Of a stretch of 64,000 nt of DNA, positions 3,158 to 63,098 are shown piece by piece. The notes beneath the pieces are model-generated. The model did no database searches. It was given only the letters and a program-made list of their open reading frames with translations, and was not told where the DNA came from. The translations under genes were made by a program, and so were the position numbers. The stretch's first letter is position 1. Every line of letters begins with the position of its first letter. This DNA comes from a virus. The stretch lies in IMG/VR virus record IMGVR_UViG_3300042400_000613, positions 22,018-86,017 of that record; one strand, 5' to 3'.

Positions 3158-5440
3158 ATGATAATTAAGTTATATGTTGGATACTACTCTCAATTTCATG
3201 CCAGCGGAGATAACTTCGCTGGCACTGAATGGGCCTTACGTCATCTTGCAGAGGCTTTTGCATCATTAGGTCACGAAGTATATATAACGGGAGACATAGT
3301 GCAGGAGAACGCTTTAAATGGCGTTATTTACTCGAAGGATTATAATGTAGAATCCGATATTCTAATTGCTCTAAATTACACTCACTACATAGATTTAATA
3401 TCAGAGGATAGTTACGATAAATCTTATTTTTGGATACATAACACAGACCCTTTCTTCTACAATTTCTATAAGGGAGAGGATGTTGATAATTTACAAGACA
3501 AAGTATTTAATCATCCTAAATTTGAAAGTGTTATTTGTGTATCTAAGTATCATAAGGGAGAATTTGACAAACATTTTCCGAATGTCCCTTCTATCATGTT
3601 ATACAATGCAGTAAAACATATAGAAAAGTCAGATAAATTAATTATTGATGATTCTTACATCTATATATCGCATGCAGAAAGGGGATTAAGAGAGATATTG
3701 ATACATTGGAGACAGATTTTATATCATCGACCTCAATCATCTTTATACATAGTAACGCCAAAATACGGAGAAAAATTCTATGAGAAGCATTTTTCTTATG
3801 TTAAAAGCACGTATAAAAATGTGTACTATCATGGATCTATGAGTAAAGATGCTTTAATGACTTTTGCGAGTAATAAAAAGTATTGGTTATATCCTTCTAA
3901 TTATGATGAGACATTTTGTGTATCTGCTGTTGAAATGCAAATGTTAGGATTGATTCCTATAACAAGATTAAGAGCAGGATTAAAAGAAACTGTATTTAAT
4001 TATATTGATTTTGATTCATGGTTATCATGTGTATTGTCTAATGATAATTTTAAAATGCTTACTAATTCATCTACATCAAATTTAAATGTATATGATGCTT
4101 TTAATCCTAAAATGATTGCTAAAGAATTTATAAATATTAATGTCATGGAAAATAAATTAAAGATAGATGCTGTCTATGTGATTACTTTTGATGTATCTGA
4201 TGAAGCTATTAATAGATACACCGCCGAATTTAATAAACTAGGTATCATACCGGGTGAGTTTCATTTATTTAAAGCTATAGATGGTAGAAATGTTAAAGTA
4301 GATTTTGATTGGTCTTTATACAATAGTTGGAAAATAGATAATCATAGTAATTCATATTATAACCGAGATATATTGCCTGGAGAGATTGGATGTGCTTTAT
4401 CTCATTTATCTGTATGGAAAGATGCTAAAAAGAAAAATTATGATTCTATTTTAATTTTAGAGGATGATTTTAAAGTAAATGGAGAGTTCCCCGCGAAAGA
4501 AATAGCATTATACGATTGGGGACTATTATACTTAGGAAGACAAAAAATCGGCGGGGACATAGACATACAAAATGAATTATACGTACATCCAGGATACTCA
4601 TGGTTATCTCATGCCTACATGTTATCAAAAGTAGGAATACAAAGAATAATAGAACAGAACTTTGAAAAATACATCTTACCAGTAGATGACTTCATAGCAT
4701 CAACATACTCAAACAACAATGAAAGATTAGATTTAACATTTATATGGAAAGACATGAATGCATATAGTTTAAAAGAATCTATAGTAAGTCAAACAAGTAA
4801 TGCAAAAACAAGTAAAACATCAAGTAATTCATTTGCATCTAACATCTATCTAACAAAAGATGTAGATAAATGGTCATCCATGTACATCAATCCTGCATTA
4901 AAGAATAAAGAATATGATTTAATTGTAGATGAACCCATACCTGATGTCTTACATTTACATGCATTTAAAAAAGAATTTTGCAATGAAGTCATAAGATTAG
5001 CAGAAGAATGTGGAAAATGGACAAAAGATAGACATTATTATTATCCAACTCATGACATGTTAATCAATGAATTTCAATTACATGATGCTTATGACATGTT
5101 TTTAAATACTTACATATATCCCCTCGTAAAATCTAATTTTGTACTTACCGGAGATAAATGGAAGAAATTTAGCTCTGAAAACTTTATTATAAAATACACA
5201 CCGGAAAATCAAGGGCATTTATCTCTACACCATGATGATTCTGCATTCTCTACCGTACTTACTTTGAATGATGAATACGAGGGAGGAGGTACATGGTTTT
5301 CAAAACAAAAGAAATTAGTTAAAGGAGAAGTAGGTGAGTTAACAATACATCCGGGACAGATAACACATAGGCATGGTGCAAGACCTGTAACTTCCGGAGT
5401 TAGATATGTTCTCGTATCCTTTATAAGACAAGTATATTAA
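3158..5440 (+). CDS. Three-domain enzyme: GT-B glycosyltransferase + GT25 glycosyltransferase + PLOD-type 2OG-Fe(II) dioxygenase
   Basis: N-terminus: YPSNYDETFCVSAVE. Middle: AIDG, GEIGCALSHL, LILEDD, AYMLS, PVDDF. C-terminus: FIIKY, LSLHHDDS, YEGGGT, HPGQITHRHGARPVTSGVRYVLVSF. Confidence 0.85.
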   Translation: MIIKLYVGYYSQFHASGDNFAGTEWALRHLAEAFASLGHEVYITGDIVQENALNGVIYSKDYNVESDILIALNYTHYIDLISEDSYDKSYFWIHNTDPFFYNFYKGEDVDNLQDKVFNHPKFESVICVSKYHKGEFDKHFPNVPSIMLYNAVKHIEKSDKLIIDDSYIYISHAERGLREILIHWRQILYHRPQSSLYIVTPKYGEKFYEKHFSYVKSTYKNVYYHGSMSKDALMTFASNKKYWLYPSNYDETFCVSAVEMQMLGLIPITRLRAGLKETVFNYIDFDSWLSCVLSNDNFKMLTNSSTSNLNVYDAFNPKMIAKEFININVMENKLKIDAVYVITFDVSDEAINRYTAEFNKLGIIPGEFHLFKAIDGRNVKVDFDWSLYNSWKIDNHSNSYYNRDILPGEIGCALSHLSVWKDAKKKNYDSILILEDDFKVNGEFPAKEIALYDWGLLYLGRQKIGGDIDIQNELYVHPGYSWLSHAYMLSKVGIQRIIEQNFEKYILPVDDFIASTYSNNNERLDLTFIWKDMNAYSLKESIVSQTSNAKTSKTSSNSFASNIYLTKDVDKWSSMYINPALKNKEYDLIVDEPIPDVLHLHAFKKEFCNEVIRLAEECGKWTKDRHYYYPTHDMLINEFQLHDAYDMFLNTYIYPLVKSNFVLTGDKWKKFSSENFIIKYTPENQGHLSLHHDDSAFSTVLTLNDEYEGGGTWFSKQKKLVKGEVGELTIHPGQITHRHGARPVTSGVRYVLVSFIRQVY

Positions 5441-5487
5441 AAAGTGAAATAAAAGACTTTTTTAATACTATTTATTGTAAACAGCAG

Positions 5488-6648
5488 ATGGCAGTTCACA
5501 TACCTATTTGGCCTGGAAGTGGTAGCGCAGTATCTGGATCTACACCTTTCGGAATATTTGACAAAGATAGAAATTTTCAAAAGGACGCCCCTAAAGTAGC
5601 CGTATGGTGCGCTAGAAGATTAGGATATCCTCTTAGTGACGTGGAATTACAAGATATAAACTTCTACACCGCTTTTGAAGAGTCTATATCCGAGTATAGC
5701 AATCAAGTTAATGCTCACTCTGCTAAAGACAATATACTAGGATTAATGGGATTCAATACCGGTTCCCTTAGATTAGAAAAAGAATTAGTTACCAATTCAA
5801 TAGCAGGCGTATTAGAAATATCTGCGGAATACGGTACAGAGATTGGAGTAGGAGGCAGAACCACATATTATACTGGCTCTATATTGGTAAAAGAGGGGAA
5901 ACAAGTTTATAGCCTATTAGACCCCACTAAAGTTTCATTAGAATCCGGTAATCCCGCTACAGACAAATTCGTAATAAGAAAAATGTTTCACAATGCACCA
6001 CCGGCTATTGTAAAATACTTTGACCCCTTTGTAGGAACAGGATTAGGTAGCCAAAACTTACTTGACCAATTTGGATTCGGTAATTTTAGCCCCGGAGTTA
6101 ATTTCTTATTAATGCCTATGCACCATGATATTCTTAGGATGCAGGCGATAGAATTTAATGACCAAATAAGAAAATCTGCATACGGCTTCGAGATAATTAA
6201 TAATAGAATAAGAATATTCCCTACACCGGTTAGAGAATACAAAATTTGGTTTGAATACACTTTAGATTCCGAATACAAAAATGCGAATAAAGGAGGTACA
6301 GGTAAAATAAATAGCCATGCTACTATTCCTTATTTCACTCTACCTTATTCTAGTATCAATGACATAGGTAAACAGTGGATAAAAAAATATACGCTTGTCC
6401 TATCTAAAGAAATGCTTGCTTATGTTAGAGGTAAGTACAAGACTTTACCCGGACTAGAGGACGATATTGTTTTAAATACTGAAGATTTAATGTATTCGGT
6501 AAATGAGGAGAAACAAAGATTAATAGATGTTCTTAGGATAGAGTTAGATCAATTTAGCCGTCAATCCCAATTAGAAAGAAAGATGGCAGAATCCGAAGCT
6601 CATGAAAAATTTTTAGCAGTAATTCCACTTAAAATATACGTAGGATAA
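5488..6648 (+). CDS. Neck protein, gp13-like
   Basis: RRLGYPLSDVEL and QWIKKYTLVLSKEMLAYVRGKY, and its position before gp14/gp15. Confidence 0.8.
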   Translation: MAVHIPIWPGSGSAVSGSTPFGIFDKDRNFQKDAPKVAVWCARRLGYPLSDVELQDINFYTAFEESISEYSNQVNAHSAKDNILGLMGFNTGSLRLEKELVTNSIAGVLEISAEYGTEIGVGGRTTYYTGSILVKEGKQVYSLLDPTKVSLESGNPATDKFVIRKMFHNAPPAIVKYFDPFVGTGLGSQNLLDQFGFGNFSPGVNFLLMPMHHDILRMQAIEFNDQIRKSAYGFEIINNRIRIFPTPVREYKIWFEYTLDSEYKNANKGGTGKINSHATIPYFTLPYSSINDIGKQWIKKYTLVLSKEMLAYVRGKYKTLPGLEDDIVLNTEDLMYSVNEEKQRLIDVLRIELDQFSRQSQLERKMAESEAHEKFLAVIPLKIYVG

Positions 6649-8065: not shown

Positions 8066-9928
8066 ATGGCAGAAAGAATAGTCAGTCCTGGCGTATTTAC
8101 AAGAGAAAAAGACCTTAGTTTTTTACCTTTAGAAATACAAGCTATAGGAGCGGCGGTTGTAGGTCCTACTTTAAAAGGACCCGCGTTCGTTCCTTCTACA
8201 ATCTCCTCTTATGAGGAATACCTTAGAGCTTTTGGTGGAGCCTTTAGTTCGGGTTCCGGTACATCCGAAAGACAGTACAAGTTCTTAACAGACTATGTAG
8301 CACAAGAATATTTGAGATATGCTGAAAATTTAACCGTAGTTAGGGTACTAGCCGGTAATTATCAGTACGCAAGTTCAAATGTAGTAACTAGAGGCGCTTA
8401 TGCTGCTGCTCCTGCTGGTATTAAGGCTCGATTAACAGGCTCTTACTTTACAGCCGCTCAACAAACTTTTAAACTCACTGTAGTATCTCCGGGTAATTAT
8501 GTAAATACATCACTCACTTCTATTGCCTCTAATAATGGAATAGGAAACCCTAATGATGACTCTACAGGAGGAGTGTTGAACATAGGAAACAGAGAGAATT
8601 TAAGATGGGAAGTAAGAGACGTTAACACTGATTTAGGTACTTTTGATTTGTACATAAGAAGAGGAGACGACAGACACAACAGAAAAGTAATTGTAGAGCA
8701 GTACAATGATTTAACTTTAGACCCTAACGATACTAACTACATCGGTAGAGTTATCGGAGATCAAATGTACACATTAAGGTATGATTCTGATGGTATTCCT
8801 TTCTTGCAGTTAAGCGGATCTTTCCCTAACAGATCAAGATATATCCGAGTAGAGGTATTTAAAGAAAATTATAACTACTTAAATGAAAATGGACAGATAA
8901 GAGTTGCTGCATTCTCTAGTAGTTTGCCCGCTGAAGTATCTGGTACTTTCTCCGGAGGTTCCGATGGATATGTAAAACACCCAAGATCATTCTTTGATAA
9001 AATTAGTGGACAAAACAGCCAGGGATTCAATTTAGATGATTTAGCAGGCGGAGCTTCTGGTTCAACTGCTTATATGGATGCTATTGACATTTTAGCCAAT
9101 GCAGATGAATATGATATCAACATGTTACTCATGCCTGGAATTATTGACGGAGTAGGTGAACAACATGGTGAAATTATAACAAAAGCGATTGCCATGATTG
9201 AAAATAGAGGAGATATTTTCATGGTGATTGACCCAACTAGATACGGTGATACTATTGGACAAGCTATAAACGCAGCCTTAGCAAGAAATACTTCTTATGC
9301 TGCTTACTACTATCCATGGGTACAAATAGCTGACGCTGACTTAGGAAGAAATGTATGGGTTCCACCATCCACTGTAGTATCAGGAGTTATTGCATTCAAT
9401 GACTACGTACAGTTTCCTTGGTATGCTCCAGCCGGTTTAAATAGAGGTGCCATTGACGTAGCTCTACAGGCAGAGAGAAAATTAACTTTAGGAGATAGAG
9501 ATAGACTTTATACTTACAATATTAATCCTATTGCTACTTATCCAAGAGAAGGTGTAGTTGTATGGGGACAGAAGACTTTACAGAAGAAAAGATCTGCACT
9601 TGATAGGATTAACGTAAGAAGGCTATTAATCACTGCTAAAAAATTCATTGCATCATCTTCTAGGTATCTAGTATTCGAACAAAATACAAAAGAAACAAGA
9701 CTTAGATTCTTAAGTATTGTTGAACCTTACTTGGAAAGCGTTAGAAGAAATCAAGGTTTATATGATTTTAGAGTAATTATGGATGAATCCAATAATACTC
9801 CCGATGTTCTTGACAGAAATGAGTTAAGAGGTGCTATTTATTTAAAACCTACTAGAACCGCGGAATTCATAATCTTAGATTTCTTTGTGTTACCTACAGG
9901 AGCTTCTTTCCCTGGTGATACAGAATAA
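8066..9928 (+). CDS. gp18: Tail sheath protein, gp18-like
   Basis: SPGVFTRE, PWYAPAGLNRG, INPI, WGQKT, RINVRRL and KPTRTAEFI. Confidence 0.97.
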   Translation: MAERIVSPGVFTREKDLSFLPLEIQAIGAAVVGPTLKGPAFVPSTISSYEEYLRAFGGAFSSGSGTSERQYKFLTDYVAQEYLRYAENLTVVRVLAGNYQYASSNVVTRGAYAAAPAGIKARLTGSYFTAAQQTFKLTVVSPGNYVNTSLTSIASNNGIGNPNDDSTGGVLNIGNRENLRWEVRDVNTDLGTFDLYIRRGDDRHNRKVIVEQYNDLTLDPNDTNYIGRVIGDQMYTLRYDSDGIPFLQLSGSFPNRSRYIRVEVFKENYNYLNENGQIRVAAFSSSLPAEVSGTFSGGSDGYVKHPRSFFDKISGQNSQGFNLDDLAGGASGSTAYMDAIDILANADEYDINMLLMPGIIDGVGEQHGEIITKAIAMIENRGDIFMVIDPTRYGDTIGQAINAALARNTSYAAYYYPWVQIADADLGRNVWVPPSTVVSGVIAFNDYVQFPWYAPAGLNRGAIDVALQAERKLTLGDRDRLYTYNINPIATYPREGVVVWGQKTLQKKRSALDRINVRRLLITAKKFIASSSRYLVFEQNTKETRLRFLSIVEPYLESVRRNQGLYDFRVIMDESNNTPDVLDRNELRGAIYLKPTRTAEFIILDFFVLPTGASFPGDTE

Positions 9929-9947
9929 ACAAAAAAAATAGACTAAA

Positions 9948-10538
9948 ATGGCATTTATAAACTCCCCATTTAAATATTTTAACCCTAAGCAGCAGATGAG
10001 ATACGTCCTCTATATCAATGATAGAGGAATGGACATCCCTACTTATATGGTTAAAACAGCGGATAGGCCCTCGCTAGATCAAAATCCAGTAACTGTAGAT
10101 TATATCAATACAGAATTTAAGGTTAAAGGTAAATCTAGGTGGCAAGATATCTCTGTAACATTATATGACCCAATTGAAGTAAACGGTGCTAGACTTCTGC
10201 ACGACTGGATTAGTAAACTTCACCATAACTCCGGATTACTCCAACCTGGCACAGGATTAGTAACCCCGGGAGAAGATGGATATATCTGGGAATATAAGAG
10301 AACATTAAGATTTGAAGCGGTTAGTCCTCATGGAGATGCTGTAGATCAGTTCCTATTATACGGAGCTTTTATTGCAGATGCTAAGTGGGGCAACATGGAT
10401 TTATCTTCGGATGATTTAAACATGTTGGATTTAACTATAACTTATGATTACGCAACCATGCCAGCTGTACAGAATGCAAATGTACTGGTTCGTGACGTAG
10501 ACGCATCGGTACCTGTAACAAGACCTAACGCAGGATAA
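9948..10538 (+). CDS. Tail tube protein, gp19-like (paralogue 1)
   Basis: PKQQMRY, KGKSRWQDISVTLYDPI and LTITYDYA, directly after the sheath gene. Confidence 0.88.
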   Translation: MAFINSPFKYFNPKQQMRYVLYINDRGMDIPTYMVKTADRPSLDQNPVTVDYINTEFKVKGKSRWQDISVTLYDPIEVNGARLLHDWISKLHHNSGLLQPGTGLVTPGEDGYIWEYKRTLRFEAVSPHGDAVDQFLLYGAFIADAKWGNMDLSSDDLNMLDLTITYDYATMPAVQNANVLVRDVDASVPVTRPNAG

Positions 10539-10592: not shown

Positions 10593-11291
10593 ATGGCATT
10601 TACACACAAACCTTTTAAGTATTTTAATCCAAAGCAGCAAATGCGCTTTGAGTTATATATGCAGGCAGATCCTTTTGGTCCTTTTTTTCCTACGTATGCC
10701 ATAAAATCAGCAGAAAGACCTACTTTAGAGAATAATCATATCACAGTAGATTACATAAATACAGAATTTCACGTTAAAGGAAAATCAAGATGGCAGCCCA
10801 TAACAATACGTTTTTATGATCCAATTGAAGATAATGGTGCCAAAATGTTACATGATTACATTAATAACTATCATCACAATTCCGGCACAACGGGAACATC
10901 TTTTAATCTTTTAACTCCGGGAGAAGATGGTTTTATACATGAATATAAAAGAACATTATATTTAAGATCATTATCACCTCATGGAGATGTCATGGATTCT
11001 TTCGTATTAGTAGGAGCATTTTTTGATTCTATTAAATGGGGAGAATTTGACATGTCTAGTGATGATTTAGTATTGATGGAAGGAACAATAGTATATGATT
11101 ATGCCATGGTTAGAGGAAGTAAGGTGAAACTTCCTGATGTAGAAGGACCTGGATTAGATGGCGGAGGCGCTAATTTCGGAAAGCAATTAGGAGATGCAGC
11201 TATAAATATTGGAAAAGGAGCAGCTCAAGCAGCCGCTAATGCCGGAATAAGTGCATTAGGTAATTTGATTGGCGGCGGCGGAAGGAACTAG
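10593..11291 (+). CDS. Tail tube protein, gp19-like (paralogue 2) with a Gly/Ala-rich tail
   Basis: Highly similar to paralogue 1 (FKYFNPKQQMR, TVDYINTEF, KGKSRWQ, TPGEDG). Start placed at 10593 by alignment of MAF. Confidence 0.88.
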   Translation: MAFTHKPFKYFNPKQQMRFELYMQADPFGPFFPTYAIKSAERPTLENNHITVDYINTEFHVKGKSRWQPITIRFYDPIEDNGAKMLHDYINNYHHNSGTTGTSFNLLTPGEDGFIHEYKRTLYLRSLSPHGDVMDSFVLVGAFFDSIKWGEFDMSSDDLVLMEGTIVYDYAMVRGSKVKLPDVEGPGLDGGGANFGKQLGDAAINIGKGAAQAAANAGISALGNLIGGGGRN

Positions 11292-13384: not shown

Positions 13385-16300
13385 ATGGGAATAGATGCTA
13401 TAAAAAAAATGGTAGAAGCCATCTTTAATGATTTAAGTCATTTTAAAGAGAAGTATGAATCGGCTTATGCGTCTTTAGTTACGATAAAAGACGACGGTAT
13501 AAAAGAATTACAAGCTAGTAAAAAAGATCGCTCCGCCAATTCCCAGAAAGAAATTGATCGACAAATAGAAGGTCTAAATATAGTTTACAAAAAAGAGCAC
13601 GCAAAACATGAATCCTTATTAAAAAGTATAGATAGTGCTATAAAGGCAGCGAAATTGATTAAAAGCCACACAAATGTAAATGGCTACTCTATTACAACAA
13701 TCCAAGAAGAATTAAATAATCTCATTCCATTTATTGAGACAGTATATACCGAGTCAAAGTTTCTAATAGGTAGAATAGAAATAGGATCGTATACATTAGG
13801 ACAACAACTAGAGTTGAAAGAAAAGGGTCTTGATTATCCTAAAGGAAAAGAAAAGAAGTTTTTAGAAAAAGAACTACGTATAGCCTCTGTTAATTTAAAT
13901 AATATTAACCCTGATGCTAAAGTAACATTAGGAGCTTTTAATAGAGCAAGAGGTGTAATCGACAAACAAGGAAACAGAACTGGAATAGAAGGTAAGTTAT
14001 CTGATTTAAAGGAAAGAAAAAAGAATGAATGGTTAAAGCCAACAACTTTAGACTTAAAGAGAAAAAAAGAAAATAATGATATTATTAGAAATCATTTAAC
14101 AGATATTACTCCTGATAAGTTACACACTATACCTCAAAATGTACAAAAAAAAATAAAAGCATATATAGGAGGTGTAAGTATATCTAGAGAAGAGCATTAC
14201 AAAAAAGGAGACCCTTATAATGAATCAGACCTTGAACAATTAATATACGCAAAAACAGGAATGTCTAGAGAGGATATTCTGCATAGTGAAAACTTATTTC
14301 CTAACCCAGAGGGATTAACAAATAAAAAAACGGAAGAAACTGCACAATCACCCGCAGAAATTAAATCTCCTGTAAAAAGAAAAGGAAAAAATAAAGCACC
14401 CGCAGACGTTATTTCTGATACAGCCTCTGTAGCTAATACATCATCACCCGCAAACATTACTTCTGATACAGCCTCTGTAGCTAATACATCATCACTTGCA
14501 GACGTTATTTCTGATACAGCCTCTGTAACTAATACAACATCCCCGGGAAATAGAGGAGGTGGTAAAAAGAGAAGAATTTCAATACGTGGGAGAGGTGGTA
14601 GCATTGGAGGTGCAAGTACCGGAGGAGGGTCACAATCACCTATTGAAGAGATTAAGCCTAAAGTTGAATACGGAGGAGGGTCACAATCACCAGGAGAAGT
14701 ATCGGATGAAATGCTTAAAATAATTGAGCAAGCAGTATTTAATGGAACTGCTAGAGCTTTTAGTCAATTTTCAAATTCTCCGATAAGCGCGCCATCTGAA
14801 TTTAGTGATTCGGCAATAGATAAGATAGGAAATACAGTTTATGAAGCAATGAAAAAAGCTTTAGACTATTATTCTGCATCTCCTGCTTTAAATATGGTTT
14901 TATTTGGAATAGACCCATCTGTTATGAAGTTATTAAAAGACGAGTTAGGAGGTCTTTCTAGTACAGGGGGCGGGACAGGTGATATGGATAAATTAGCCGA
15001 AGAATTAAGAAAAAGTAGAGAGAGCAATGAAAACCTAGCTAAAATGCAAGAAGCTAGAAGAAAAAAAGCAGCAGCAGAAAAAAGAAAAAAAGATAAAGAA
15101 GCAGAAAAGGAAAAAAAGAGAATAGCGGATCCTAATTCACCCGAAAGTATAGCTAAAAAGAAAAAAGAAGCCGACGCAGCAGAAAGAGCTCAAAAGAAAA
15201 AAGATAAAGAAGACCCTAATTCACTAGAAAATATAGCAAAAGCAGAAGAAAAAAAGAGGAAAGAAGAAGAAAAAAAAGCTAAAGAAGATAAAGCAAAGTT
15301 AAAAGCCGAAAGAGAAGCAGACCCCTTTAGAAAAAGATTAAAGACAATATTTAAAGAAGGAGAACAGGAGCTATCATTTCTATATGCTAAGACAGATGCT
15401 TTTGTAGGATGGATTCCAGGATTTAACGACGCTATATTAGAGGCTAGAAAAAGTGCTTTAGAAACTTTACGAAAAGGGTACGAAGAATTTGATTTAGAAT
15501 ACGCAAACTCGGGTAGTGCGTTTAAGGGTATGAAAAAAGCAATATCAGAGATGTTTAAGATATCTCCCTTCACCGTTATAGTAGCAGGATTAACAACCAT
15601 AGGAATACTTTTAGGTAAAACAATTTTTAATGCAGCTCAAAAAGTAAATACTCAAATAAAGGAAATAGCAGCAGAATTAGGAACATCAAATAGACAATCC
15701 TATGAGATGTTTAAAAATGCTATGAATGCTCAAACTCAATTTGAAAATTTACATGCTAGCTTAAGAGATGTTATGGATGCTCAAAAAGGCATTCTAGGAG
15801 ATTCTGGCATTTTATTAAGAACAAATGATAAAGCATTATCTGCCATAGCTGACAATGCAAAAAATATAGGATTGTCTGTAGAATCTGCCGGTGCATTTTA
15901 TGAGAATTTAAGAATGAAAGGGGCGGGTGATACTGAGGCGAATAATGTCATGACTGCATCACTAGAACTTGCAGATAAAAGAGGATTTTCTCCCCAATCC
16001 ATAGTAGATGATATAGCTCAAAATGCTGAATTTGCATCAAAATATTTTTCTAAGATTAATAAAGATTCTAAATCTGCTCATAGAAATTTAATCGAAACTA
16101 ATATACAAGTAAAAAACTTAGGATTAAATTTTCAGAAGGCATCTAAAATGACACAGCATTTATTGTCATTTGAGCAAAGCATTACAGCAGAAGTTGAAGC
16201 ATCTGTAGCATTAGGTACGCATGTTGATATTGGAAAAGCTAGAGAATTGCTTTTACAGGATGATATTGCCGGAGCGATGACACAAATGATGAATGCCATT

Positions 16301-21001: not shown

Positions 21002-21014
21002 AATAAAATAAATC

Positions 21015-23261: not shown

Positions 23262-23272
23262 TTTATATAGTT

Positions 23273-26346: not shown

Positions 26347-26349
26347 ATA

Positions 26350-52803: not shown

Positions 52804-52996
52804 TTATGAAGAAGCAGCGATAGATTTAGTCTTTGACATAACATCTAAAAATAATTTCACTAATTGGTCAGATAAAGTGTCTAAACATGAAAAAATAGAC
52901 ATATCAGAGAAGATGCTAAAGTATTATGAAAAGAAAGATGATTTTGCTAAATGTATTATAATTAAGAACGCTTTAAAACAAATTAAACATGTTTAG
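52788..52996 (+). CDS. Hypothetical protein; start approximate
   Basis: Likely start MAKIS; contains YYEKKDDFAKC. Confidence 0.55.
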
Positions 52997-53402
52997 ATTA
53001 AAATGGATTCCATTATTGGATAAAGTTTACATGTATTTGATAGATCCTCATACAGGCTATCCATTGTCTGTAAAAGAGTACCTACATTTTGAAGATGCAA
53101 TAAATGATTTATCAAATACTTTATCTAACATTGTTCTTCCTGAAAATTGGATTAGCAAAGATGGTAAGCATGAATATAAAATTGTAGTTCATGATAATGG
53201 ATCAAGCATTAAGGATTACATAGAAGTATTTTATAATTTCTTAGGCATTCCTATATCATCGGCAGAACAATTAGCTATCATCCTTAAAAATAATAAAAAA
53301 GTAGATTTCAAAAAAGTACAAGATTCCGAATTAATAAATGAATACTGCGAAGATTTAATAGCAGATAACATGAATTTTGAAGTACATATAACAAATATAT
53401 AA
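52989..53402 (+). CDS. Degenerate ClpS-like adaptor
   Basis: YKIVVHDN, YIEVF, SAEQLAIIL, K.K...K and CEDLIADNMNFEV follow the Bacteroidota ClpS pattern. Confidence 0.5.
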   Translation: MFRLKWIPLLDKVYMYLIDPHTGYPLSVKEYLHFEDAINDLSNTLSNIVLPENWISKDGKHEYKIVVHDNGSSIKDYIEVFYNFLGIPISSAEQLAIILKNNKKVDFKKVQDSELINEYCEDLIADNMNFEVHITNI

Positions 53403-53926
53403 TGAGCCTGTTTCAACGAAAGTCTTTTAATCCTAATGGCCGGCCTCAAATAAATCTAAGCGAGTCCGAAATAAAATACGCGATAGAAAATACTAACTCT
53501 TCGGCACAAGCAGCTAGATTCCTCCGAGTTTCCCCCTCTACCTTCAAAAAATACGCATCTATATACAAAAACCCTAATACCGGAGAGACCTGGTATGAAA
53601 CTTCCAATAACAAGAGTGGAGTAGGCGTTTTTAGAACACCTAAAGCATCTGATTTCTTTTCCGATTTAAAAGAGGTACTAGAGGGTAAGAGAGTTTGTAA
53701 AAATAAAACTCACTTCAAAAAGAGGCTACTAATGTCCGGATTGGTTTCAAGTAAGTGTTGTCTATGTGGATTTCATGAAAAGAGATTATCGGACGAGTCA
53801 AGCCCATTTCTTTTAGATCACATAGACGGAAATACAGATAATCAAAGAATAGAAAATATAAGAGTGTTGTGCTATAACTGTTATTATGTAAATGTAGGAA
53901 ATTTAATAGGACCCAAAAATTTTTAA
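53402..53926 (+). CDS. HTH-HNH endonuclease
   Basis: SAQAARFLRVSPSTFKK HTH, CCLCG and LDHIDGNTDNQRIENIRVLCYNC. Confidence 0.85.
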   Translation: MSLFQRKSFNPNGRPQINLSESEIKYAIENTNSSAQAARFLRVSPSTFKKYASIYKNPNTGETWYETSNNKSGVGVFRTPKASDFFSDLKEVLEGKRVCKNKTHFKKRLLMSGLVSSKCCLCGFHEKRLSDESSPFLLDHIDGNTDNQRIENIRVLCYNCYYVNVGNLIGPKNF

Positions 53927-55128: not shown

Positions 55129-56664
55129 TTATTTGATTGTATAAATTATTTTATTGCCTATTTCATCTACAGCTTCTATTGTATTTATGGTAATTTTTAA
55201 TGTACTTTGTAAATGGTTAACTATATAGCTACAAATGTCATGAGCATCAGAACCATTTTTTACGAAAACACCATTCTCGTTAAAGAATTTATCAAAATAC
55301 TGGCTGTAAAAAAACAAGACTTCATTGTAATCTAATAATGTTTTTGTTTGAAGAGCTACTTTTTTAATATATATCTTTTTGTATATCTTAGAGTTAGTTA
55401 ACCTATCTTTTTCAGAAATAGGCAATTTGTTAATATTAAATATGATTGAATTTGACTTTTTATCATTCCATGGATGCTGCACTTTCCATAAAAAAGAATG
55501 TGTAGCATCTATTTCTAATGTTAAATTTCTGAATGTAGATCTTTTACCTGGGAGCGGGATTGCAGGCTCCTGAATATCTTTAGGAGGTTCTACAGGTTGT
55601 GGGGCAGGAGCAGTTTTAGACAGTAATTTATCTAACATAGGGAATCCATACCCATACTCAATATCTTTACCTTCCGGCCCGCCATCTACGGCATTAGTAG
55701 AAAGAAAAGCTATAAGATCAGCTTGATTCTTTATTTCAGGGTACCACTTCAATACATGGCCCATAGCGGCCGTACCGTGAGGTGTAGCCATACTTGTACC
55801 ATCCCAAGACACATAGCTTCCGTTATCTTTAAAAGTAGACCAGATAGAAACTCCAGGAGCTATAGCCTCTAATTCTGTTCCGTATTGAGAGAAATTAGCT
55901 CTCTTACCTGTGTTATCACAAGCAGCCCAGGAGATAACTTCTTTATGAGCAGCGGGCCATCCCACTACACCACTTCCGTCGTTACCGGCAGCAGCATTAA
56001 CAAAAGCACCTCTTGATATAACTTGCTCTATAGCTCTAGAAATAGCAGGAGTTTCAGACCCGCCACCCCAAGAAAAATTGTAAACTAGCAAGTAACCTAG
56101 TTTTTTATACTCGGTTTCCCATACATTAGCGCCATGAAGTATTGCGTTAACTAACCAATCAGAAGCACCGGAGCCATTGGAATTTAATCCCTTTTGCGCC
56201 ATGATGAGATCTTCCGTAGGGGCATTGTTAACATAGGCCAAACCAAGCGGGAATCCATTAGGGTGTTTCCCCATAATAGTACCTGCAACGTGGTGGCCAT
56301 GTCCGTGACCATCGATTCCATTTTTATCGGTCGTATGGTCCAAGCAAAACTTTTTTGGTACAAATTGATTGTTTGATACCAGAGCGTCGTGATTTGGATA
56401 TGCCATAGTATCGACAACACAATACAATATTTTACGAGTTGGTTTCTCACCCCTTTTTAATTTTTCTGCAATAAAATCTGTTTTTAAAAAACCATAACCC
56501 CAATTACCGTCACTAAGTATTTTGGCCTGTAGTGTTGCGGAAATAGGGGTAGGAGGAGGGGGGAGAATGATTTCGTGATTCTCCCCTAGAGCATTAAAAT
56601 ATTTAGCAACTAGCTCAAAGTTTATTTTTTGAGCGAATTGTATGTCGGATGCGGAAAATTTCAT
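55129..56664 (-). CDS. S8 subtilisin-like serine protease
   Basis: Catalytic triad VVDT, HGHHVAG and GTSMATP, plus AAAGN. Confidence 0.93.
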   Translation of the reverse strand: MKFSASDIQFAQKINFELVAKYFNALGENHEIILPPPPTPISATLQAKILSDGNWGYGFLKTDFIAEKLKRGEKPTRKILYCVVDTMAYPNHDALVSNNQFVPKKFCLDHTTDKNGIDGHGHGHHVAGTIMGKHPNGFPLGLAYVNNAPTEDLIMAQKGLNSNGSGASDWLVNAILHGANVWETEYKKLGYLLVYNFSWGGGSETPAISRAIEQVISRGAFVNAAAGNDGSGVVGWPAAHKEVISWAACDNTGKRANFSQYGTELEAIAPGVSIWSTFKDNGSYVSWDGTSMATPHGTAAMGHVLKWYPEIKNQADLIAFLSTNAVDGGPEGKDIEYGYGFPMLDKLLSKTAPAPQPVEPPKDIQEPAIPLPGKRSTFRNLTLEIDATHSFLWKVQHPWNDKKSNSIIFNINKLPISEKDRLTNSKIYKKIYIKKVALQTKTLLDYNEVLFFYSQYFDKFFNENGVFVKNGSDAHDICSYIVNHLQSTLKITINTIEAVDEIGNKIIYTIK

Positions 56665-56992: not shown

Positions 56993-57913
56993 TTAATTAT
57001 TTAACCTCCGAGGAAAATATAATTTTTTAAATTCCCAATATTCTTTCATGTAATCAGCCCTCATATTATAATCAGGACTTGTATGATACCCGGATTTCAT
57101 CATACATTTACATATATTCCGGTAAATTTGAATCGGCGGGAGACTATAATCAGCCTTCCTGCACTTATCATATCTAGGAGCATTGAATACACTAGCCCAT
57201 ACTTTTATTCCCTCTTCAGTATTATTTGCGGAAAAGAACTTTTGTTTCATATTTCTCTTCCTTCCCTTTACATACTCTATTGTCATTAAGTTAACCCAAT
57301 CATATTTACCTATCTTCTTTATACCACCAGGATTACCGTACAACCGCCATAGTTCTGTCTCAACGCCAACAGATGTAGCTTCCAATATAAAGTAAGCATA
57401 TATAAAAGATACCGGGAAATCAGTCATGTGATGCACAGCATAGAAGAGAGAATCATAGTTATACAATAAATTCAATCTTCTTAGTGTAATAAGACTTAAG
57501 TTGTCTATATTCCTAAATCCCTGCTTACGTAGATATTCGGCAGCTTCTTTATGACTGTACTTCTTAAAATCGTGACCATGAGACCTAGAGGCGAATGCTG
57601 TGAAAGGAATGGCAAAGGGAACGGACTTGCTAGGCTTTGCAGCAGTTCCGTTCCTTTGTATATTCACTTTATTCTCTATGTACACCGTATCTTTTACAAT
57701 GGTATAGATTGATTTCTCTATGTACACAGTGTCATAAACGTATTGGACAGCATACTCAATAGAACCTCCGGAGAATATTTCTTGCTTATCGTAATCAGAT
57801 GGAGTATTTCTACTAGTAATAGCGCCCAAGAAAAACGCAGTGACTATTGAAAGCCCAATGTAGATAGGCAATCTTTTATTCTCCCGTATATAGGTTTCTA
57901 CTCTTTCTCCCAT
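56993..57913 (-). CDS. GH73/glucosaminidase-like peptidoglycan hydrolase with an N-terminal membrane anchor (candidate endolysin)
   Basis: FILEA, NPGGIK, TIEY and GYHTSPDY (YATD-like), plus an N-terminal TM segment. Confidence 0.75.
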   Translation of the reverse strand: MGERVETYIRENKRLPIYIGLSIVTAFFLGAITSRNTPSDYDKQEIFSGGSIEYAVQYVYDTVYIEKSIYTIVKDTVYIENKVNIQRNGTAAKPSKSVPFAIPFTAFASRSHGHDFKKYSHKEAAEYLRKQGFRNIDNLSLITLRRLNLLYNYDSLFYAVHHMTDFPVSFIYAYFILEATSVGVETELWRLYGNPGGIKKIGKYDWVNLMTIEYVKGRKRNMKQKFFSANNTEEGIKVWASVFNAPRYDKCRKADYSLPPIQIYRNICKCMMKSGYHTSPDYNMRADYMKEYWEFKKLYFPRRLNN

Positions 57914-58225: not shown

Positions 58226-58753
58226 TTATACCCTTTCAATCTCATTACCAGAAATCATAGACATATCAGCCTCTAAATAAGATAAGGGCTTCAACATCTT
58301 ACCGTCAGATAACCTAGAGAAATAATAGAAATCCTCACCTTCTACTGTACAGGACTTAATATCAATCCTGTCATCAGTTGTCATACCGTATTTCTTACGA
58401 ACACCAAGCAACTGTGATTCCGCTAGCGACTTAGAGGGTAGAAACTTACTAAAATTACTTTCATTGACTTTCTCGATAGCTTCAATAACCGGAATGTCTA
58501 ATTGAACTAAGATGCCAAGCAATGTATAAATAACATCAACTGCCTCCTTTGCAATGTGCTGCCTGTTAATAAAATCAAAATCAATGTTATCATCCATGTC
58601 AGAATCATCTAATGGCATGAACTCATCAATAAATTCAGTGTTTTCATCTAAGAACATCGCTAACGCATTCTGTATATCTTCCACTTTTTTTTGCTCATGT
58701 CGTCCTAACATCTTTTGGAATTTGACAACATCTTCTAAGACATCTCTTTTCAT
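58226..58753 (-). CDS. MazG-like/PRA-PH nucleotide pyrophosphohydrolase; start approximate
   Basis: V..FQ, DENTEF, KEAVDVIY, V.ESNFSK and DGKMLKP. Confidence 0.8.
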   Translation of the reverse strand: MKRDVLEDVVKFQKMLGRHEQKKVEDIQNALAMFLDENTEFIDEFMPLDDSDMDDNIDFDFINRQHIAKEAVDVIYTLLGILVQLDIPVIEAIEKVNESNFSKFLPSKSLAESQLLGVRKKYGMTTDDRIDIKSCTVEGEDFYYFSRLSDGKMLKPLSYLEADMSMISGNEIERV

Positions 58754-58885
58754 TTTTACTGATTTGTGATTGTTGATATAATAAAATTTTGGAATAGACA
58801 TAAAAACATTTTTACACATGCGGACATCAATGAGGCAGCATGCGAATTAACATTTGTTTGTTTTGTTTGAGAGAGGGAAGGTTAG

Positions 58886-58957
58886 TAGCGGGAACCAGAG
58901 TCGAACTGATAGTATAAGATCATGAGTCTTATGTGTTAACCATTACACTATCCCGCT
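58886..58957 (-). tRNA. tRNA with anticodon CAT (elongator Met or Ile2); CCA not encoded
   Basis: Minus strand AGCGGGA-TA-GTGT AATGGTTA ACAC-A-TAAGA CTCATGA TCTTA-TACT-ATCAG TTCGACT CTGGT-TCCCGCT-A. Confidence 0.9.
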
Positions 58958-59800: not shown

Positions 59801-60341
59801 TCTCGTATAAAGCCTTCAAGTCATCCATGTTTATATTTTCCTTCGGCCGGACCTCGACAAGTGTACCGGTTTGGCTCACAATCTCGACGTAAGGCAGGAT
59901 ATCGTGGTAGTGGGTACGAGAAGTAAAGTCATGTATTAAGATGGATTGTACGCCCTTTATGACCGCTTTACAGGCACAGGCTAATCTGAACCTACCATCA
60001 ACTAGTACAACATCAATATCGTCGTACTTATCAATAACAGCAGAATACGTAGGAAAGTTGTCTTTTTTATTGTTGTTAGTTGGTCTCCCCATATTCCCAG
60101 CGTTAATGTCAATATGGTGGAACGTTATATCTGGGTGGATCTTAACTGCCTCGTATTGCTTCACCTCCTCTATCCACATTTTTTGAGACTCCACTGATAC
60201 TACCTTCCCGGCCCCATTTTTGCACGCCCGGAAAGTACTCCCACCTGCACCCCACTCAAAGTAAAACACAACACCCCGAACAGCATTCACAAACATTTCT
60301 TCCTCATCCTTTTTCATTAGTATTCCCGGCTCTTTTCTCAT
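59778..60341 (-). CDS. SAM-dependent methyltransferase-like protein
   Basis: YFEWGAGGST, SVES, VLVDGRFRLAC and IHDF. Confidence 0.8.
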   Translation of the reverse strand: MRKEPGILMKKDEEEMFVNAVRGVVFYFEWGAGGSTFRACKNGAGKVVSVESQKMWIEEVKQYEAVKIHPDITFHHIDINAGNMGRPTNNNKKDNFPTYSAVIDKYDDIDVVLVDGRFRLACACKAVIKGVQSILIHDFTSRTHYHDILPYVEIVSQTGTLVEVRPKENINMDDLKALYESAKYDYR

Positions 60342-60344
60342 AAA

Positions 60345-60720
60345 TTCTTTTTACATGCTTATTAATCTCTTTCATATATAAGTACATTCAGAGAGCATCC
60401 TTATCATCATGTCTTTTATATTTCATATTCATTTTACATATTAGAAGCATTTTACTTTACACATTAGAAGAATTTCATTTTATACATTTTCTCTGCATCC
60501 ACTTATTATTCTTTTTTCATTTAATATTTCATGCTTTCTTAAATGTTATTTTTCATCCTTTTTCATTTAATATTTCATGTTATTTTAATTTTATACTTTA
60601 ATATTTCATGTTATTTTAAATCTTATTTTTCATTTAGTAGCAATGCATATTTCATTCTTATTTCATTTTATATTTCATCCTATGTTCATGTTATTTTGAG
60701 TGCATTTTTTTTGTCCGCGG
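60345..60720. repeat. Non-coding T-rich low-complexity tract with recurrent (TT)CAT(G) units
   Basis: TTTTCATTTAATATTTCATG and ATATTTCATGTTATTTT recur; the tract ends at CCGCGG (60715). Confidence 0.75.
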
Positions 60721-60984
60721 TTTTTTAAATATTGATTCCGGAGAAGTGCCAAAACTGTATAGGGAAAAGTGTAAAAGCCTGATAATTAATAGGTTGCTTA
60801 GTGAATTACTTCAAATGGTATATAAATAACTAGTAGGGAAAAAAATGGACCTCGATATGAACGTGGTTCTAACCGGCGATCCCTTTTCTGGACTTTTTGT
60901 GTCTTATCGAAAATAATGGAATGGCTGAAACCCGCATGGTTATTAGGTTTCAGATCTTTTGTCAATTTTTTTGAAAAATAGTGC

Positions 60985-61015
60985 TTGACAGTCAATATCT
61001 GAAAATCTATCTTTG
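60985..61015 (+). promoter_or_regulatory. Early promoter, Bacteroidota sigma type
   Basis: TTG(ACA) followed by TATCTTTG at 61008-61015. Confidence 0.7.
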
Positions 61016-61181
61016 TGGTGTACTTAATCGGTTACGACGTACGATGCACCTACAAACGTGTAGGTGTTTATTTTGAAACGCGGGAAAAATTTTCAACCCT
61101 TATATATGTGAGGAACAATAAACGGGTTGAAAAAAAATTAAAAAAAAATTCGCAAAGTGTTTTTTTTACGAAAATGTTTTT

Positions 61182-61189
61182 TATCTTTG
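61182..61189 (+). promoter_or_regulatory. Early promoter -7 element
   Basis: TATCTTTG about 40 nt before the 41-aa ORF. Confidence 0.7.
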
Positions 61190-61230
61190 CATCAACGAAT
61201 TAATTATTTAACCACTTAATCACTTTTATC

Positions 61231-61356
61231 ATGAAAAAATCAGATTTAATCATTGTTGCAGTTGGTATCGTAGTAATTGCGGCAATTTTATGCGGCTTAT
61301 TTTACGCCGCAATTATTCTTAATAACGGAAACGCCGGTTTTAACGGCGGTTTCTAA
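61231..61356 (+). CDS. 41-aa membrane/secreted peptide (paralogue A), absent from the ORF track
   Basis: MKKSDLIIVAVGIVVIAAILCGLFYAAIILNNGNAGFNGGF; homologue at 63379. Confidence 0.8.
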   Translation: MKKSDLIIVAVGIVVIAAILCGLFYAAIILNNGNAGFNGGF

Positions 61357-61429
61357 AACAAAAAAAGGGCTACATTAAATTGTAGCCCTACCTTAAAAAA
61401 TCATTTTTAACCTTTTTAAATTTTACGTT

Positions 61430-61687
61430 ATGAATTTCAAAATTAATTTTATTTACTCTTTGATTTATGCCAACATTGGCAAAAATGGTATATCTCGCGA
61501 GAATGCCTCAAGAATGTTAACTATTTTAAATCGAGCAAATCGTTTTACGGCAAATCGTTTACTTGAGGATTTAATCCGCGAAAATGCGGAACACTATGTA
61601 ACCCAATTTTGTTGGGACAAAAGTAACCCAATAGTGGTATCTTATGAGGAATATTTCTTTGACCTTTTAGTCAAAGAAATGAAATAA
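61430..61687 (+). CDS. Early hypothetical protein
   Basis: Preceded by a hairpin (61366-61389) and a TTTTTAAATTTTA leader. Confidence 0.7.
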   Translation: MNFKINFIYSLIYANIGKNGISRENASRMLTILNRANRFTANRLLEDLIRENAEHYVTQFCWDKSNPIVVSYEEYFFDLLVKEMK

Positions 61688-61773
61688 AAAAAGAGGGGCT
61701 TCGCCTGAAGCCCCTCACTAAAAAAAATCGGGCAAAAAATTATTAACTTTTTTTAAATTTTAAATTTACAGTC

Positions 61774-62076
61774 ATGTATCAATTATCATTTAACTTGCTT
61801 AATGCAGGTAGTGTCACAGTTTCTTTTGACGTCAACTTTGGCGGAATACAAGAGCTTTATGTTGGCTTAAAGCCAACATTTGACAAATTTTATTTTGCCT
61901 CATTGAGCCAAAAAATACAGCTTGCTTCAATTAAAGCAAATGATAGCTTTAATTTCAAATGGGATAGGATATCCCAAAGCGAATTAAGAATTGAGATTCT
62001 TAAGCAAGTTTTAGATATTAAGACAAGAGAGGACGGCAATTACTATCAAACGTCCAAATTTAATTGGATACCTTAA
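61774..62076 (+). CDS. Early hypothetical protein
   Basis: Preceded by a hairpin (61693-61716) and a similar leader. Confidence 0.7.
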   Translation: MYQLSFNLLNAGSVTVSFDVNFGGIQELYVGLKPTFDKFYFASLSQKIQLASIKANDSFNFKWDRISQSELRIEILKQVLDIKTREDGNYYQTSKFNWIP

Positions 62077-62145
62077 ACAGAAAGCCCCGCGGTAAAACGC
62101 GGGGCAATTTTTAAATAAATTTTTTAATCACTTAAATTTTATACT

Positions 62146-62391
62146 ATGATTACAATTGAGTTTAAAAGAAATGGTTCTTTCTTTGTGGCTTATGTCCAAA
62201 GAGAAACCGAAAAGGCATACCAATGCGAGGTTCTCTTAGTAGATATTAATTGGGGTGACGCGGTAAAGCTGAACAAATTAATTTGGCTCCCTAAGTCAGC
62301 GGTTCAAGGTAACAAGTTACAAGCCTGGCTTGTAAGAAAGTTAGACCTAAGCGGTACATGGGAGGGTGTGCCACCTACCTACCCAAACTAA
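62146..62391 (+). CDS. Early hypothetical protein (RETEKA...WLPKS type)
   Basis: Preceded by a hairpin (62084-62105); ETEKA and WLPKS motifs are common in small phage proteins. Confidence 0.7.
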   Translation: MITIEFKRNGSFFVAYVQRETEKAYQCEVLLVDINWGDAVKLNKLIWLPKSAVQGNKLQAWLVRKLDLSGTWEGVPPTYPN

Positions 62392-62393
62392 AC

Positions 62394-62430
62394 AAAAGCC
62401 CCGGCCGGTGACGGTTCGGGGTTTTTTTTT
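62394..62430 (+). terminator. Rho-independent terminator closing the first early cassette
   Basis: GCCCCGGCCG-GTGA-CGGTTCGGGG followed by T9. Confidence 0.8.
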
Positions 62431-62489
62431 GCCTGGTTCTAACCTCATTAGATCCGGGCTTCGCCCGACGACGTAGGGGGCACCCAACG

Positions 62490-63098
62490 ACACACACATA
62501 CAATAGACAGGCATACATTAGATAGTGCATTAGAGAGACCATTAGACAGGCATACAATAGACAGGACAATATCGCGGGGCTTAACTACATCAACACATTA
62601 CATACATTAGATACACATGATACAATAGATGATAGATAGATGATAGATGAATAGGATATAATAAAACATATAATGAATTGCCTGATAAGATATGTACCAT
62701 GTATATTAGATGTATATTAGATGTTATATAGATTAAATGATATACCTTATGTTGTATAGATGTTATATAGATTAAATGATGTTATATTAGATGATAGGAT
62801 AGATGTATATTAGATGTATATTTTTATTTAATGTTATATAGATGGATGTTAGGATATGTAATATAAATGTTGTATATTAGAGGCATGATAGATAGATGTA
62901 TTATTAGATAATGTATATAGAATGAATAATAAGAATGTATGATAGATGTTATATAAGATGATATGGTATAATGTAGTTTAGATGTTATGATAGATGTATA
63001 GTGGATGTTATATAATGTAAGTAATGTATAATTGAATGTTTATAAAAGATGTATTATATTTCTGGATTGATATTATATGTACATGATAGTTCCCCGCG
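62490..63098. repeat. Non-coding ACAT/ATGT degenerate tandem tract, mostly bracketed by CGCGGGG and CCCCGCG
   Basis: CATACAATAGACAGG occurs twice (62497, 62551). ATGTATATTAG units have a 10-11 bp period. A 24-bp repeat lies at 62718/62757. CGCGGGG is at 62573 and CCCCGCG at 63092. Confidence 0.85.

Follow-up and report, generated by a model that had tools for sequence, protein, structure and literature searches.

The locus and its islands

The stretch of DNA analysed here, called the window throughout, corresponds to the final 64 kb of a virus record made up of a single contig of 86,017 bases (IMG/VR record IMGVR_UViG_3300042400_000613), and our subject is a set of islands within it that are rich in CAT and ATG and poor in CG. 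A Pfam scan of the window revealed a T4-type major capsid protein, a tail sheath, a tape-measure-like protein and gp32-like, RecA-like and DnaB-like proteins; the window further encodes both ribonucleotide reductase subunits, a family A polymerase and a run of glycosyltransferases. The nearest capsid relatives, at 55–60%, are Microcystis phage Mel-JY01 and the Flavobacterium 'immuto' phages. Near-identical DNA is present in 24 lake/freshwater metagenome DNA runs, and no RNA run is among the sequencing runs listed as containing the window stretch. The phage is a T4-like freshwater phage, and its host is probably a freshwater member of the Bacteroidota. Because one relative of 142.6 kb is rated only 82% complete, we infer that the 86-kb record is a genome fragment. 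No near-identical record was found among GenBank phages, and the relatives used here were drawn from IMG/VR, which has many; 57 kb of the relative G001 (84% nucleotide identity) and 59 kb of the relative G005 (80%) were aligned to the window.

The islands were noticed by eye, and the original prediction held that they ignore gene boundaries and gene function, that rare GC-rich motifs bracket them and that they reflect a system acting at the level of DNA. The coding islands, 0.4–1.5 kb in size, are listed below; A3 and T3 denote A and T at third codon positions, and z values refer to the shuffles described in the next section.

3901–4400: ATG-type (T3-rich) island in the GT4/GT25/lysyl-hydroxylase fusion gene 3158–5440; residual ATG z at most 2.5, CG z −2.9; CG-free at 3867–4222; synonymous identity to G001 0.79–0.84
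4401–5250: the strongest island, CAT-type (A3-rich, T3-poor); peak z 5.9, A3-minus-T3 score +29 over 40 sites
10801–11100: weak island in the tail-tube gene; z for CAT and for ATG ~2.1–2.4 (z 3.2 for 10600–11110, as delimited by eye)
15551–16650: island in the tape-measure-like gene 13385–17821; peak z 4.5, called independently in G001 and G005
21551–22350: island over the 5' 60% of gene 21520–22854, which has no family match; peak z 3.9, called in G001 and G005; synonymous identity to G001 0.82–0.86
27151–28650: island over the dnaB 3' end and nearly all of nrdB, across the gene border; z 4.0
38977–40017: ATG-type island over a whole gene of no known family; ATG z 2.2–2.6, called in G001 and G005; synonymous divergence (pS) to G001 0.167, vs 0.555 in the rest of the genome
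46201–46775: island spanning the border of genes 45654–46307 and 46304–47233; peak z 4.3, recovered by the scan with its own open reading frame (ORF) caller
49051–49680: moderate island in the GT2 gene 48805–50166; z 3.7 in the within-gene shuffle; synonymous identity to G001 0.82–0.86 at 49294–49741
52801–53433: moderate island over an intergenic stretch and gene 52989–53402; CAT z 2.9, CG z −2.2, peak z 3.9 in the full-genome scan

As had been claimed, the islands straddle gene borders and cover unrelated functions (glycosyltransferases, tape measure, DnaB, NrdB and tail tube). The A3/T3 bias of the strongest island is kept in 8 tabulated relatives, chosen from 15 full-length IMG/VR loci.

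CAT and ATG cluster beyond synonymous shuffling

Three null models were used, in which synonymous codons were shuffled within genes, genome-wide, or genome-wide within classes that also fix the first two bases of the next codon (context-aware). The variance of CAT+ATG per 300 bp, a measure independent of the choice of islands by eye, was 26.3, compared with 16.0–16.2 in the within-gene shuffles (z 12.8 and 11.2), 14.6 in the genome-wide shuffle (z 13.6) and 15.9 in the context-aware shuffle (z 12.0). The islands therefore exist as predicted, with a variance z of 11–13 over synonymous shuffles, and because the clustering survives shuffles that keep both the amino acids and the codon context, the pattern resides at the nucleotide level. 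An artefact of codon context was rejected: C-ending codons are favoured before AT genome-wide (0.395 vs ~0.29), yet the context-aware shuffle leaves z at 12. CAT has the highest variance z (8.4) among all 64 trinucleotides, as have ACAT (8.7) and CATG (8.6) among all 256 tetranucleotides. Further, residual CAT correlates with residual ATG (r = +0.40), and residual CAT+ATG correlates inversely with residual CG (r = −0.53).

CG occurs 1346 times in the window, at a mean spacing of ~48 bp, and its longest CG-free gaps lie at 4582–5125 (543 bp) and 62575–63095 (520 bp), the first of which matches the stretch without CG that had been seen by eye near 4585–5124. Of 300 within-gene synonymous shuffles, 6 had a coding CG gap as long as 543 bp. 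When the 13 coding islands listed by eye were compared with within-gene shuffles, ten had a CAT+ATG z of at least 2.9; 3680–4495 (2.7) and 58500–58860 (2.3) fell short, and 57040–57500 (0.8) failed. The z of CG was negative in 12 of the 13 but beyond −2 in just 2. These individual values are inflated because selection was by eye. Window islands called blind (4401–5250, 15551–16250, 21551–22350, 27151–27750 and 46201–46775) agree with the list, and a separate scan, based on ORFs that it called itself, recovered these islands together with a further one at 52984–53433 and one upstream of the window. The upstream CAT/ATG island (z 3.8) lies at 18401–19000 of the record, ~3 kb before the window starts.

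The same pipeline gave a variance z of 12.0 for the window's genome, 8.0 for G001 and 10.6 for G005, whereas two other Flavobacteriia phages, immuto (z 0.8) and Cellulophaga phage phi14:2 (z 1.2), of each of which 45 kb were analysed, were not over-dispersed, so that the method itself is not the source of the signal. Together, the shuffle test and the two negative control phages make a pattern spotted by eye measurable without bias.

The islands share one codon dialect

Dinucleotide rho values in the islands are 0.53 for CG, 1.28 for CA, 1.18 for TG, 0.84 for TA and 1.18 for AT, compared with 0.75, 0.94, 0.91, 0.96 and 0.97, respectively, in the rest of the genome; the genome-wide rho of CG in immuto (0.48) and phi14:2 (0.45) is near the island value, unlike the clade background. 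At variable sites the islands have NCA instead of NCT or NCG, C-ending codons before AT, and ATT or ATC instead of ATA, and they avoid the codons CTT, ACT and ACG (ACG, 4 vs 29 expected; CG, 35 vs 69). They are not plainly AT-rich, ATA and TAT being depleted, and the biggest CAT excess is in xxC-ATx, that is, C chosen over T. For nine islands, the vectors of residual trinucleotide use, computed without CAT and ATG, correlated at a mean r of 0.33, compared with 0.07 among control stretches and 0.01 between islands and controls, showing that one dialect is common to the islands. Their polarity differs: two are strongly A3-rich (including 4500–5150), and one gene-sized island (38977–40017) is T3-rich. 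Internal paralogs or gene conversion were rejected as a source, since self-BLAST of the 86-kb record matched no island to another island or to any other place in it.

A local mutational process, for instance one in which modified cytosine is deaminated at ACGT/CpG or single-stranded DNA is exposed, could have written such a dialect, because CpG depletion goes together with a surplus of both CpA and TpG, ACG is scarce and residual CAT+ATG runs against residual CG. The dinucleotide counts argue otherwise: by simple arithmetic, the CG deficit of the islands (~35) is far too small for their CA+TG excess (~200). Moreover, the main CAT excess is of C over T, and the strongest island would need T3-to-A3 transversions. 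Deamination scars alone, one of the possibilities raised at the outset, are thus not supported as an account of the islands and, given also the gain rates and the slow divergence described below, we consider a local mutational process very unlikely.

Several further observations concern codon and oligonucleotide usage across the window. In coding regions throughout, C-ending codons are strongly preferred just before ATG (xxC-ATG in frame, 104 vs 59 expected, z 7.9), and 51 window CATG sites read TATG in G001. CCGG occurs 145 times vs 75 expected from synonymous shuffles (z 10), with CGG and CCG also enriched, and CTG (z −9), GATC, TCGA and CTGG are depleted. The sole tRNA gene of the window (58885–58957, minus strand) has the anticodon CAT and could decode Met or, once modified, Ile (ATA), a codon that the background uses often and the islands avoid. 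Among known RNA families, nothing but a tRNA reaches the gathering score in the whole window.

The islands keep their positions in relatives and diverge half as fast

Comparison with related phages, as originally proposed, placed the islands at matching positions in the window, G001 and G005: CAT and ATG together amount to 70, 66 and 67 per kb in the islands vs 36, 38 and 35 in the rest, and CG to 12.8, 13.6 and 10.4 vs 21.5, 16.9 and 17.0. Blind island calls in the two relatives all fell on window islands (6 of 6 in G001 and 5 of 5 in G005, with alignment offsets mapped by hand). Island extent varies by lineage, because the 5' part of dnaB differs between lineages, with 8–11 CAT+ATG per 300 bp in loci L042 and L044 vs 16–19 in the window and G001; this part (26250–27000) is CAT/ATG-rich and CG-poor in the latter two and not in the former.

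The islands also diverge more slowly. Their pS to G001 was 0.334 vs 0.555 in the rest, and the link is graded, residual CAT+ATG correlating inversely with pS over 173 sub-windows (Spearman −0.34, p = 6e-6). Compared with flanks in the same genes, the islands had lower synonymous divergence (0.359 vs 0.535) and lower nonsynonymous divergence (pN, 0.062 vs 0.086), and the ratio of synonymous to nonsynonymous differences was the same in islands and flanks (Fisher p = 0.56). A constraint on synonymous sites only had seemed supported when the islands were compared with all other genes, where amino-acid divergence seemed unchanged; it failed against same-gene flanks, relative to which both pS and pN of the islands are reduced. 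All third-position base classes are more conserved in the islands, for example 4-fold A (0.83 vs 0.63). Among seven sequences no run of more than 12 invariant codons was found, so that there is no discrete conserved core and variable synonymous sites are merely sparser over ~1 kb. Among five genomes, synonymous differences in the islands amounted to 0.49–0.62 of those in the background in nine of the ten pairs, and island distances therefore keep the shape of the genome tree.

Exchange by blocks occurs in this clade. At 20000–20900, within gene 18983–21001, the window and the relative G002 have 64–74 differences per 250 nt (~25–30%) in genomes otherwise ~99–100% identical, and this block is clearly a recombination import. 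Hypermutation between these two genomes was rejected, the 68 differences after position 21200 having no special spectrum. At 3990–4120, in the first island, some relatives have 50% amino-acid identity, yet the codons that still match are 100% identical, a pattern that looks like a compensated frameshift and not divergence.

Such exchange raises the alternative that the islands were themselves imported from a donor phage lineage of other composition, spread by homologous recombination and are younger than the rest. Their atypical dinucleotide signature, single dialect and borders that ignore genes would fit this origin, as would the lower within-clade divergence at both site classes in a clade where block-wise imports plainly occur. 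Recent spread would, in turn, be hard to square with island distances that follow the genome tree scaled by ~0.5–0.6 and are not star-like, and no genome wholly in the island dialect is among the relatives fetched. Since the one island compared with outside relatives points the same way (next section), we regard import as improbable.

A cause at the level of translation, that is, local codon selection or a hidden overlapping frame, could explain a strongly skewed codon use (ATA, CTT, ACT and ACG avoided and NCA preferred), and strong codon bias is known to lower the synonymous substitution rate (dS). This cause would not be expected to cross gene borders, cover parts of genes and come in opposite A3 and T3 polarities, nor to lower nonsynonymous divergence as much as synonymous. 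Overlapping genes, sought as stop-to-stop ORFs in three islands, were rejected: no alternative-frame ORF exceeds 75 amino acids in 4300–5300 or 94 amino acids in 21400–22500, and a single antisense frame of 132 amino acids is the sole long alternative frame in 38900–40100. We therefore give translation hardly any weight.

The islands are eroding, and one is confined to the clade

With G005 (80% identity) as the outgroup, parsimony was used to assign gains and losses to the window and G001 lineages. In the islands, CAT/ATG underwent 39 gains vs 65 losses (p = 0.014), compared with 376 gains vs 382 losses in the rest (islands vs rest, Fisher p 0.021), and the gain rates in the islands (0.0057 and 0.0044) did not exceed those elsewhere (0.0075 and 0.0094). 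By the same approximate reckoning, CG was gained 52 times and lost 16 times in the islands; in the rest, on the window lineage, it was gained 309 times and lost 68 times, and CCGG was gained 28 times and lost 4 times. The window has 135 CCGG sites and G001 has 83, of which just 38 are common, and the CCGG excess is recent and particular to the window's lineage. The results indicate that the islands, which diverge slower and not faster than the rest, are at present losing CAT/ATG and gaining CG, a trend opposite to that of a mutational process still writing them.

The dnaB/nrdB island is the only one that was followed to greater depth and compared for outside affinity. Among 83 nrdB sequences, 67 with dnaB, nrdB and nrdA in the same order were kept, and 16 with this order lacking or with incomplete matches were dropped. 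The segment comprising the dnaB 3' end and nrdB had a z of 6.0–7.3 in all seven clade loci, of −0.9 to 2.2 in 5 loci at 66–70% NrdB identity and of −3.1 to 1.2 in 55 loci at 54–56% NrdB identity, showing that this island is restricted to the clade. The proteins tell the same story for island and non-island genes: identity to phi14:2 is 68% for NrdB (island) and 66.5% for NrdA (non-island), identity to immuto is 54% and 47%, and identity to five IMG/VR loci is 66–70% and 55–68%, respectively. Outside the clade, NrdB and NrdA thus share both their relatives and the distances to them, which argues against a separate foreign origin of this island.

Two non-coding arrays are of a different kind

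Two of the islands noticed by eye are non-coding.

60345–60720, between divergent gene blocks: degenerate repeat array of ATATTTCATG-like units; repeat families D1, D2, D8 and D10
62573–63098, almost C-free on the plus strand: array of TAGATGT-type repeats, flanked by CGCGGGG and CCCCGCG

These are objects of a different kind from the coding islands. In the first, Tandem Repeats Finder gave periods of 12, 18, 22–24 and 77, and identity to G005 is 0.91–0.93 at 60400–60600. Around the second, 62400–63000 is 94–100% identical to G005 per 100 nt vs the 80% genome average; the core of the array is nearly invariant in five phages, and its ends vary by repeat units. A 27-nt piece of this core occurs in 4 IMG/VR contigs, all of the same clade and once in each. 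A miniature inverted-repeat mobile element was rejected as an explanation, because dispersed copies are absent both from these contigs and, by self-BLAST, from the genome itself, which holds no second copy. The two arrays have weak local lags of 11–12 bp (r 0.14–0.17). The inverted symmetry that had been described, with ACAT dominating on the left and ATGT on the right, is clear in the non-coding array and not clear in the coding islands. A search of 60200–63500 against Rfam gave nothing above threshold (best E 0.03), and promoter-like sites in 60200–63600 number 22 vs 17.1 ± 4.3 expected, an uninformative difference. Overall, the array at 62573–63098 is probably a functional non-coding element, and both arrays, which are conserved and lie in the early/regulatory region, are probably protein-binding or origin-like elements.

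In addition, 62400–63230 consists of three adjoining stretches that each use three letters almost exclusively, the first T-poor (A/C/G), the next ~430 nt almost C-free and the last again T-poor, with four ACGGAC-containing 17-mers (family D9); the first two are 94–100% identical to a relative of 80% genome identity. Elsewhere in the window, a 48-nt tandem repeat (14397–14545, 3.1 copies) lies within the tape-measure-like gene.

GC-rich 6-mers as possible island brackets

CCCCGC and its complement GCGGGG occur ten times in the window vs 4.08 ± 1.99 in shuffles, 1 of 100 of which reaches ten. Two terminator hairpins account for four of the sites and the flanks of the non-coding array for two; the remaining four, in coding DNA, are at the following places:

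4485–4557, plus strand: AGTTCCCCGCG, 55 nt, ATCGGCGGGG, where the ATG-type island meets the CAT-type island; both 6-mers kept in G001 and G005
22369–22375, plus strand: TCCCCGC at the right edge of island 21551–22350; kept in G001 and G005; edge-contrast p = 0.033
39946–39952, plus strand: TCCCCGC near the right edge of island 38977–40017; kept in G001 and G005; edge-contrast p = 0.044

These sites bear on the alternative that the islands are functional domains at the level of DNA, bound or organised by a phage protein or shielded from recombination, with TTCCCCGCR and ATCGNCGGGG as punctuation and the array at 62573–63098 as the pure form. In its favour, island positions are conserved down to 80% identity, and a drop in divergence at all sites is also what constraint on DNA as such would produce. 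The copies of CCCCGC at 4489, 22370 and 39947 are the only ones in aligned G001 (3 of 3) and, together with 63092, the only ones in aligned G005 (4 of 4). The edge-contrast test gave p = 0.94, 0.016, 0.033 and 0.044 for the four coding 6-mers, which combine (Fisher's method, by hand) to ~0.006. In loci L011, L012, L013 and L018, which have a 28-codon insert just before GCGGGG (window 4540–4570), the conserved letters TCGGCGGGGA are read in another frame through a compensated one-base deletion and one-base insertion, so that the GCGGGG letters persist despite a change of reading frame. Finally, the non-coding array that carries the same brackets is 94–100% identical to G005.

Other results count against functional domains. 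No extended motif surrounds CAT, the ±6-nt context of 257 island and 2147 outside CAT/ATG sites having weak preferences only, and no 10–11 bp periodicity emerged, a consistent peak at 10–11.5 bp being absent from six coding islands. CAT/ATG is in net loss with no raised gain rate, and the dnaB/nrdB island is absent from all 60 syntenic loci outside the clade (z at most 2.2). The looser 5-mers CCCCG/CGGGG have no general edge link (3 of 19 sites with p < 0.05), most island edges lack the CCCCGC/GCGGGG motif, and there are four coding 6-mer sites in all. The idea of brackets thus gets some backing from the exact 6-mers, which are conserved and for which three of four coding sites have p of 0.016–0.044, and none from the degenerate brackets TCCCCTCG at 5119 and CGGAGGGG at 21617, which are not kept in G005, or from the 5-mers. 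As island brackets the GC sites are suggestive only and, because only four are coding, the association stays a lead.

Of the DNA-level system originally envisaged, the nucleotide-level pattern and the conserved positions stand, and the working loading sites or arrays do not, there being no motif, no period and a net loss of CAT/ATG; such a working system is further weakened because synonymous sites are not specially protected relative to same-gene flanks (Fisher p = 0.56). We accordingly hold functional domains to be doubtful. A bolder version, in which a phage chromosome-domain system would be made up of the islands, the near-invariant array and the rare, conserved sites that punctuate them (TTCCCCGCR on the right and ATCGNCGGGG on the left), seems to us quite improbable; its segments would be kept from exchange with the wider gene pool or coated by a phage protein, halving divergence and freezing composition, and CCCCGC would serve as oriented Chi-like boundary or loading signals.

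Metagenome contigs of four runs, mapped on 20001–40000, had summed-depth peaks at 27338–28004 and also in the non-island bins 35342–36008 and 36676–37342; nothing usable on starts, ends or modification came from them.

Historical compositional domains as the favoured explanation

The explanation we favour, tentatively and with a little less than even confidence, is that the coding islands are slowly evolving, historical compositional domains and not a working device, while the rest of the genome shifts towards CpG and CCGG. What the data show is that the islands exist at positions shared by relatives, that they have one dialect in common, that divergence in them is halved for synonymous and nonsynonymous sites alike, that they are eroding and that the dnaB/nrdB island is confined to this clade. 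According to this explanation, certain segments of 0.4–1.5 kb, indifferent to gene borders, would retain a CpG-poor, CpA/TpG-rich and slightly AT-richer codon dialect, with a CpG level near that of other Flavobacteriia phages; they gather substitutions of both classes at about half the background rate. The clade background would have moved, and in the window's lineage would still be moving, towards more CpG and CCGG, presumably through frequent recombination imports, through repair biased in favour of GC, or both, each of which would also raise divergence. The slow segments would lag behind this shift and so stand out as islands, now slowly eroding as, on balance, CAT/ATG disappears and CG accrues. 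The slowness of the segments would be due to fewer imports or to a constraint as yet unseen, and the island dialect would be the ancestral one.

Several observations weigh against historical domains. In the closest pair, the window and G002, the ratio of island to background synonymous differences is 1.42, the islands being more different than near-clonal flanks, and the islands are therefore not simply exempt from exchange. Some slowly diverging segments lack CAT/ATG richness (9485–10110, 40623–40920 and 56212–56509). CG changes fast and the parsimony relies on an outgroup of 80% identity, so that some CG 'gains' may be parallel losses and the figures are approximate. The dialect is more than CpG not yet gained, because the CA+TG excess far exceeds the CG deficit. 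Lastly, slow historical domains assign no role to the conserved CCCCGC sites and the GCGGGG at 4551, of which three of the four coding sites lie at composition steps.

Overall, the pattern is real and unusual in scale, and most likely it arises from a known type of evolutionary process. If the historical explanation is true, this clade is a clean natural record of a phage genome changing its dialect piecewise, and a few hundred bases are enough for the evolutionary rate within one gene to change two-fold, which bears on dating, on the inference of recombination and on codon-based host prediction in uncultured phages. If instead the functional explanation is true, the islands would show phages organising or insulating sections of the chromosome in a new manner, one that overlies coding sequence.

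Comparison with known systems

In the literature, to the extent of the text available, we found no account of phage islands below gene size that combine CAT/ATG richness with a lack of CpG. The FRESCo approach (PMC4376164) deals with parts of viral genes under excess synonymous constraint. Such regions resemble the islands in that synonymous divergence drops locally inside coding genes. They differ in that nonsynonymous divergence is equally reduced in the islands, which contain no discrete conserved element.

The two non-coding arrays call to mind a separate class of element. Iteron- and operator-like repeat arrays occur in the regulatory and origin regions of phages, and both arrays share their AT-rich, degenerate direct repeats, local 11–12 bp spacing, location between transcription units and strong conservation. 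The array at 62573–63098 departs from them in its unusual length (~520 bp), in having one strand almost free of C and in its inverted 7-mer brackets, and is a candidate for such an element.

Deamination of 5-methylcytosine leads to CpG depletion with an excess of TpG and CpA, and the island rho values for CG (0.53), CA (1.28) and TG (1.18) have this form. Unlike in such deamination, deficit and excess are unbalanced in the islands and the present trend is a gain of CG; further, no DNA cytosine methyltransferase was found among the 38 window ORFs scanned against Pfam.

Parallels are also offered by mosaic phage genomes and their 'genomic islands', which likewise have an aberrant dinucleotide and codon signature and borders set by recombination and not by genes, and block-wise exchange is seen in this clade. 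In contrast to these, the islands described here are sub-genic or straddle gene borders, evolve more slowly, share one dialect and have no separate protein ancestry (as tested for dnaB/nrdB). GC-biased gene conversion and isochore-like structure, finally, produce base-composition domains linked to recombination. The islands differ from such domains in their under-kilobase scale, in their occurrence in a phage and in being specific to CAT/ATG. They resemble them in combining lower third-position GC (GC3) and lower CpG with lower divergence and, as we infer, less exchange, against a background that gains CG.

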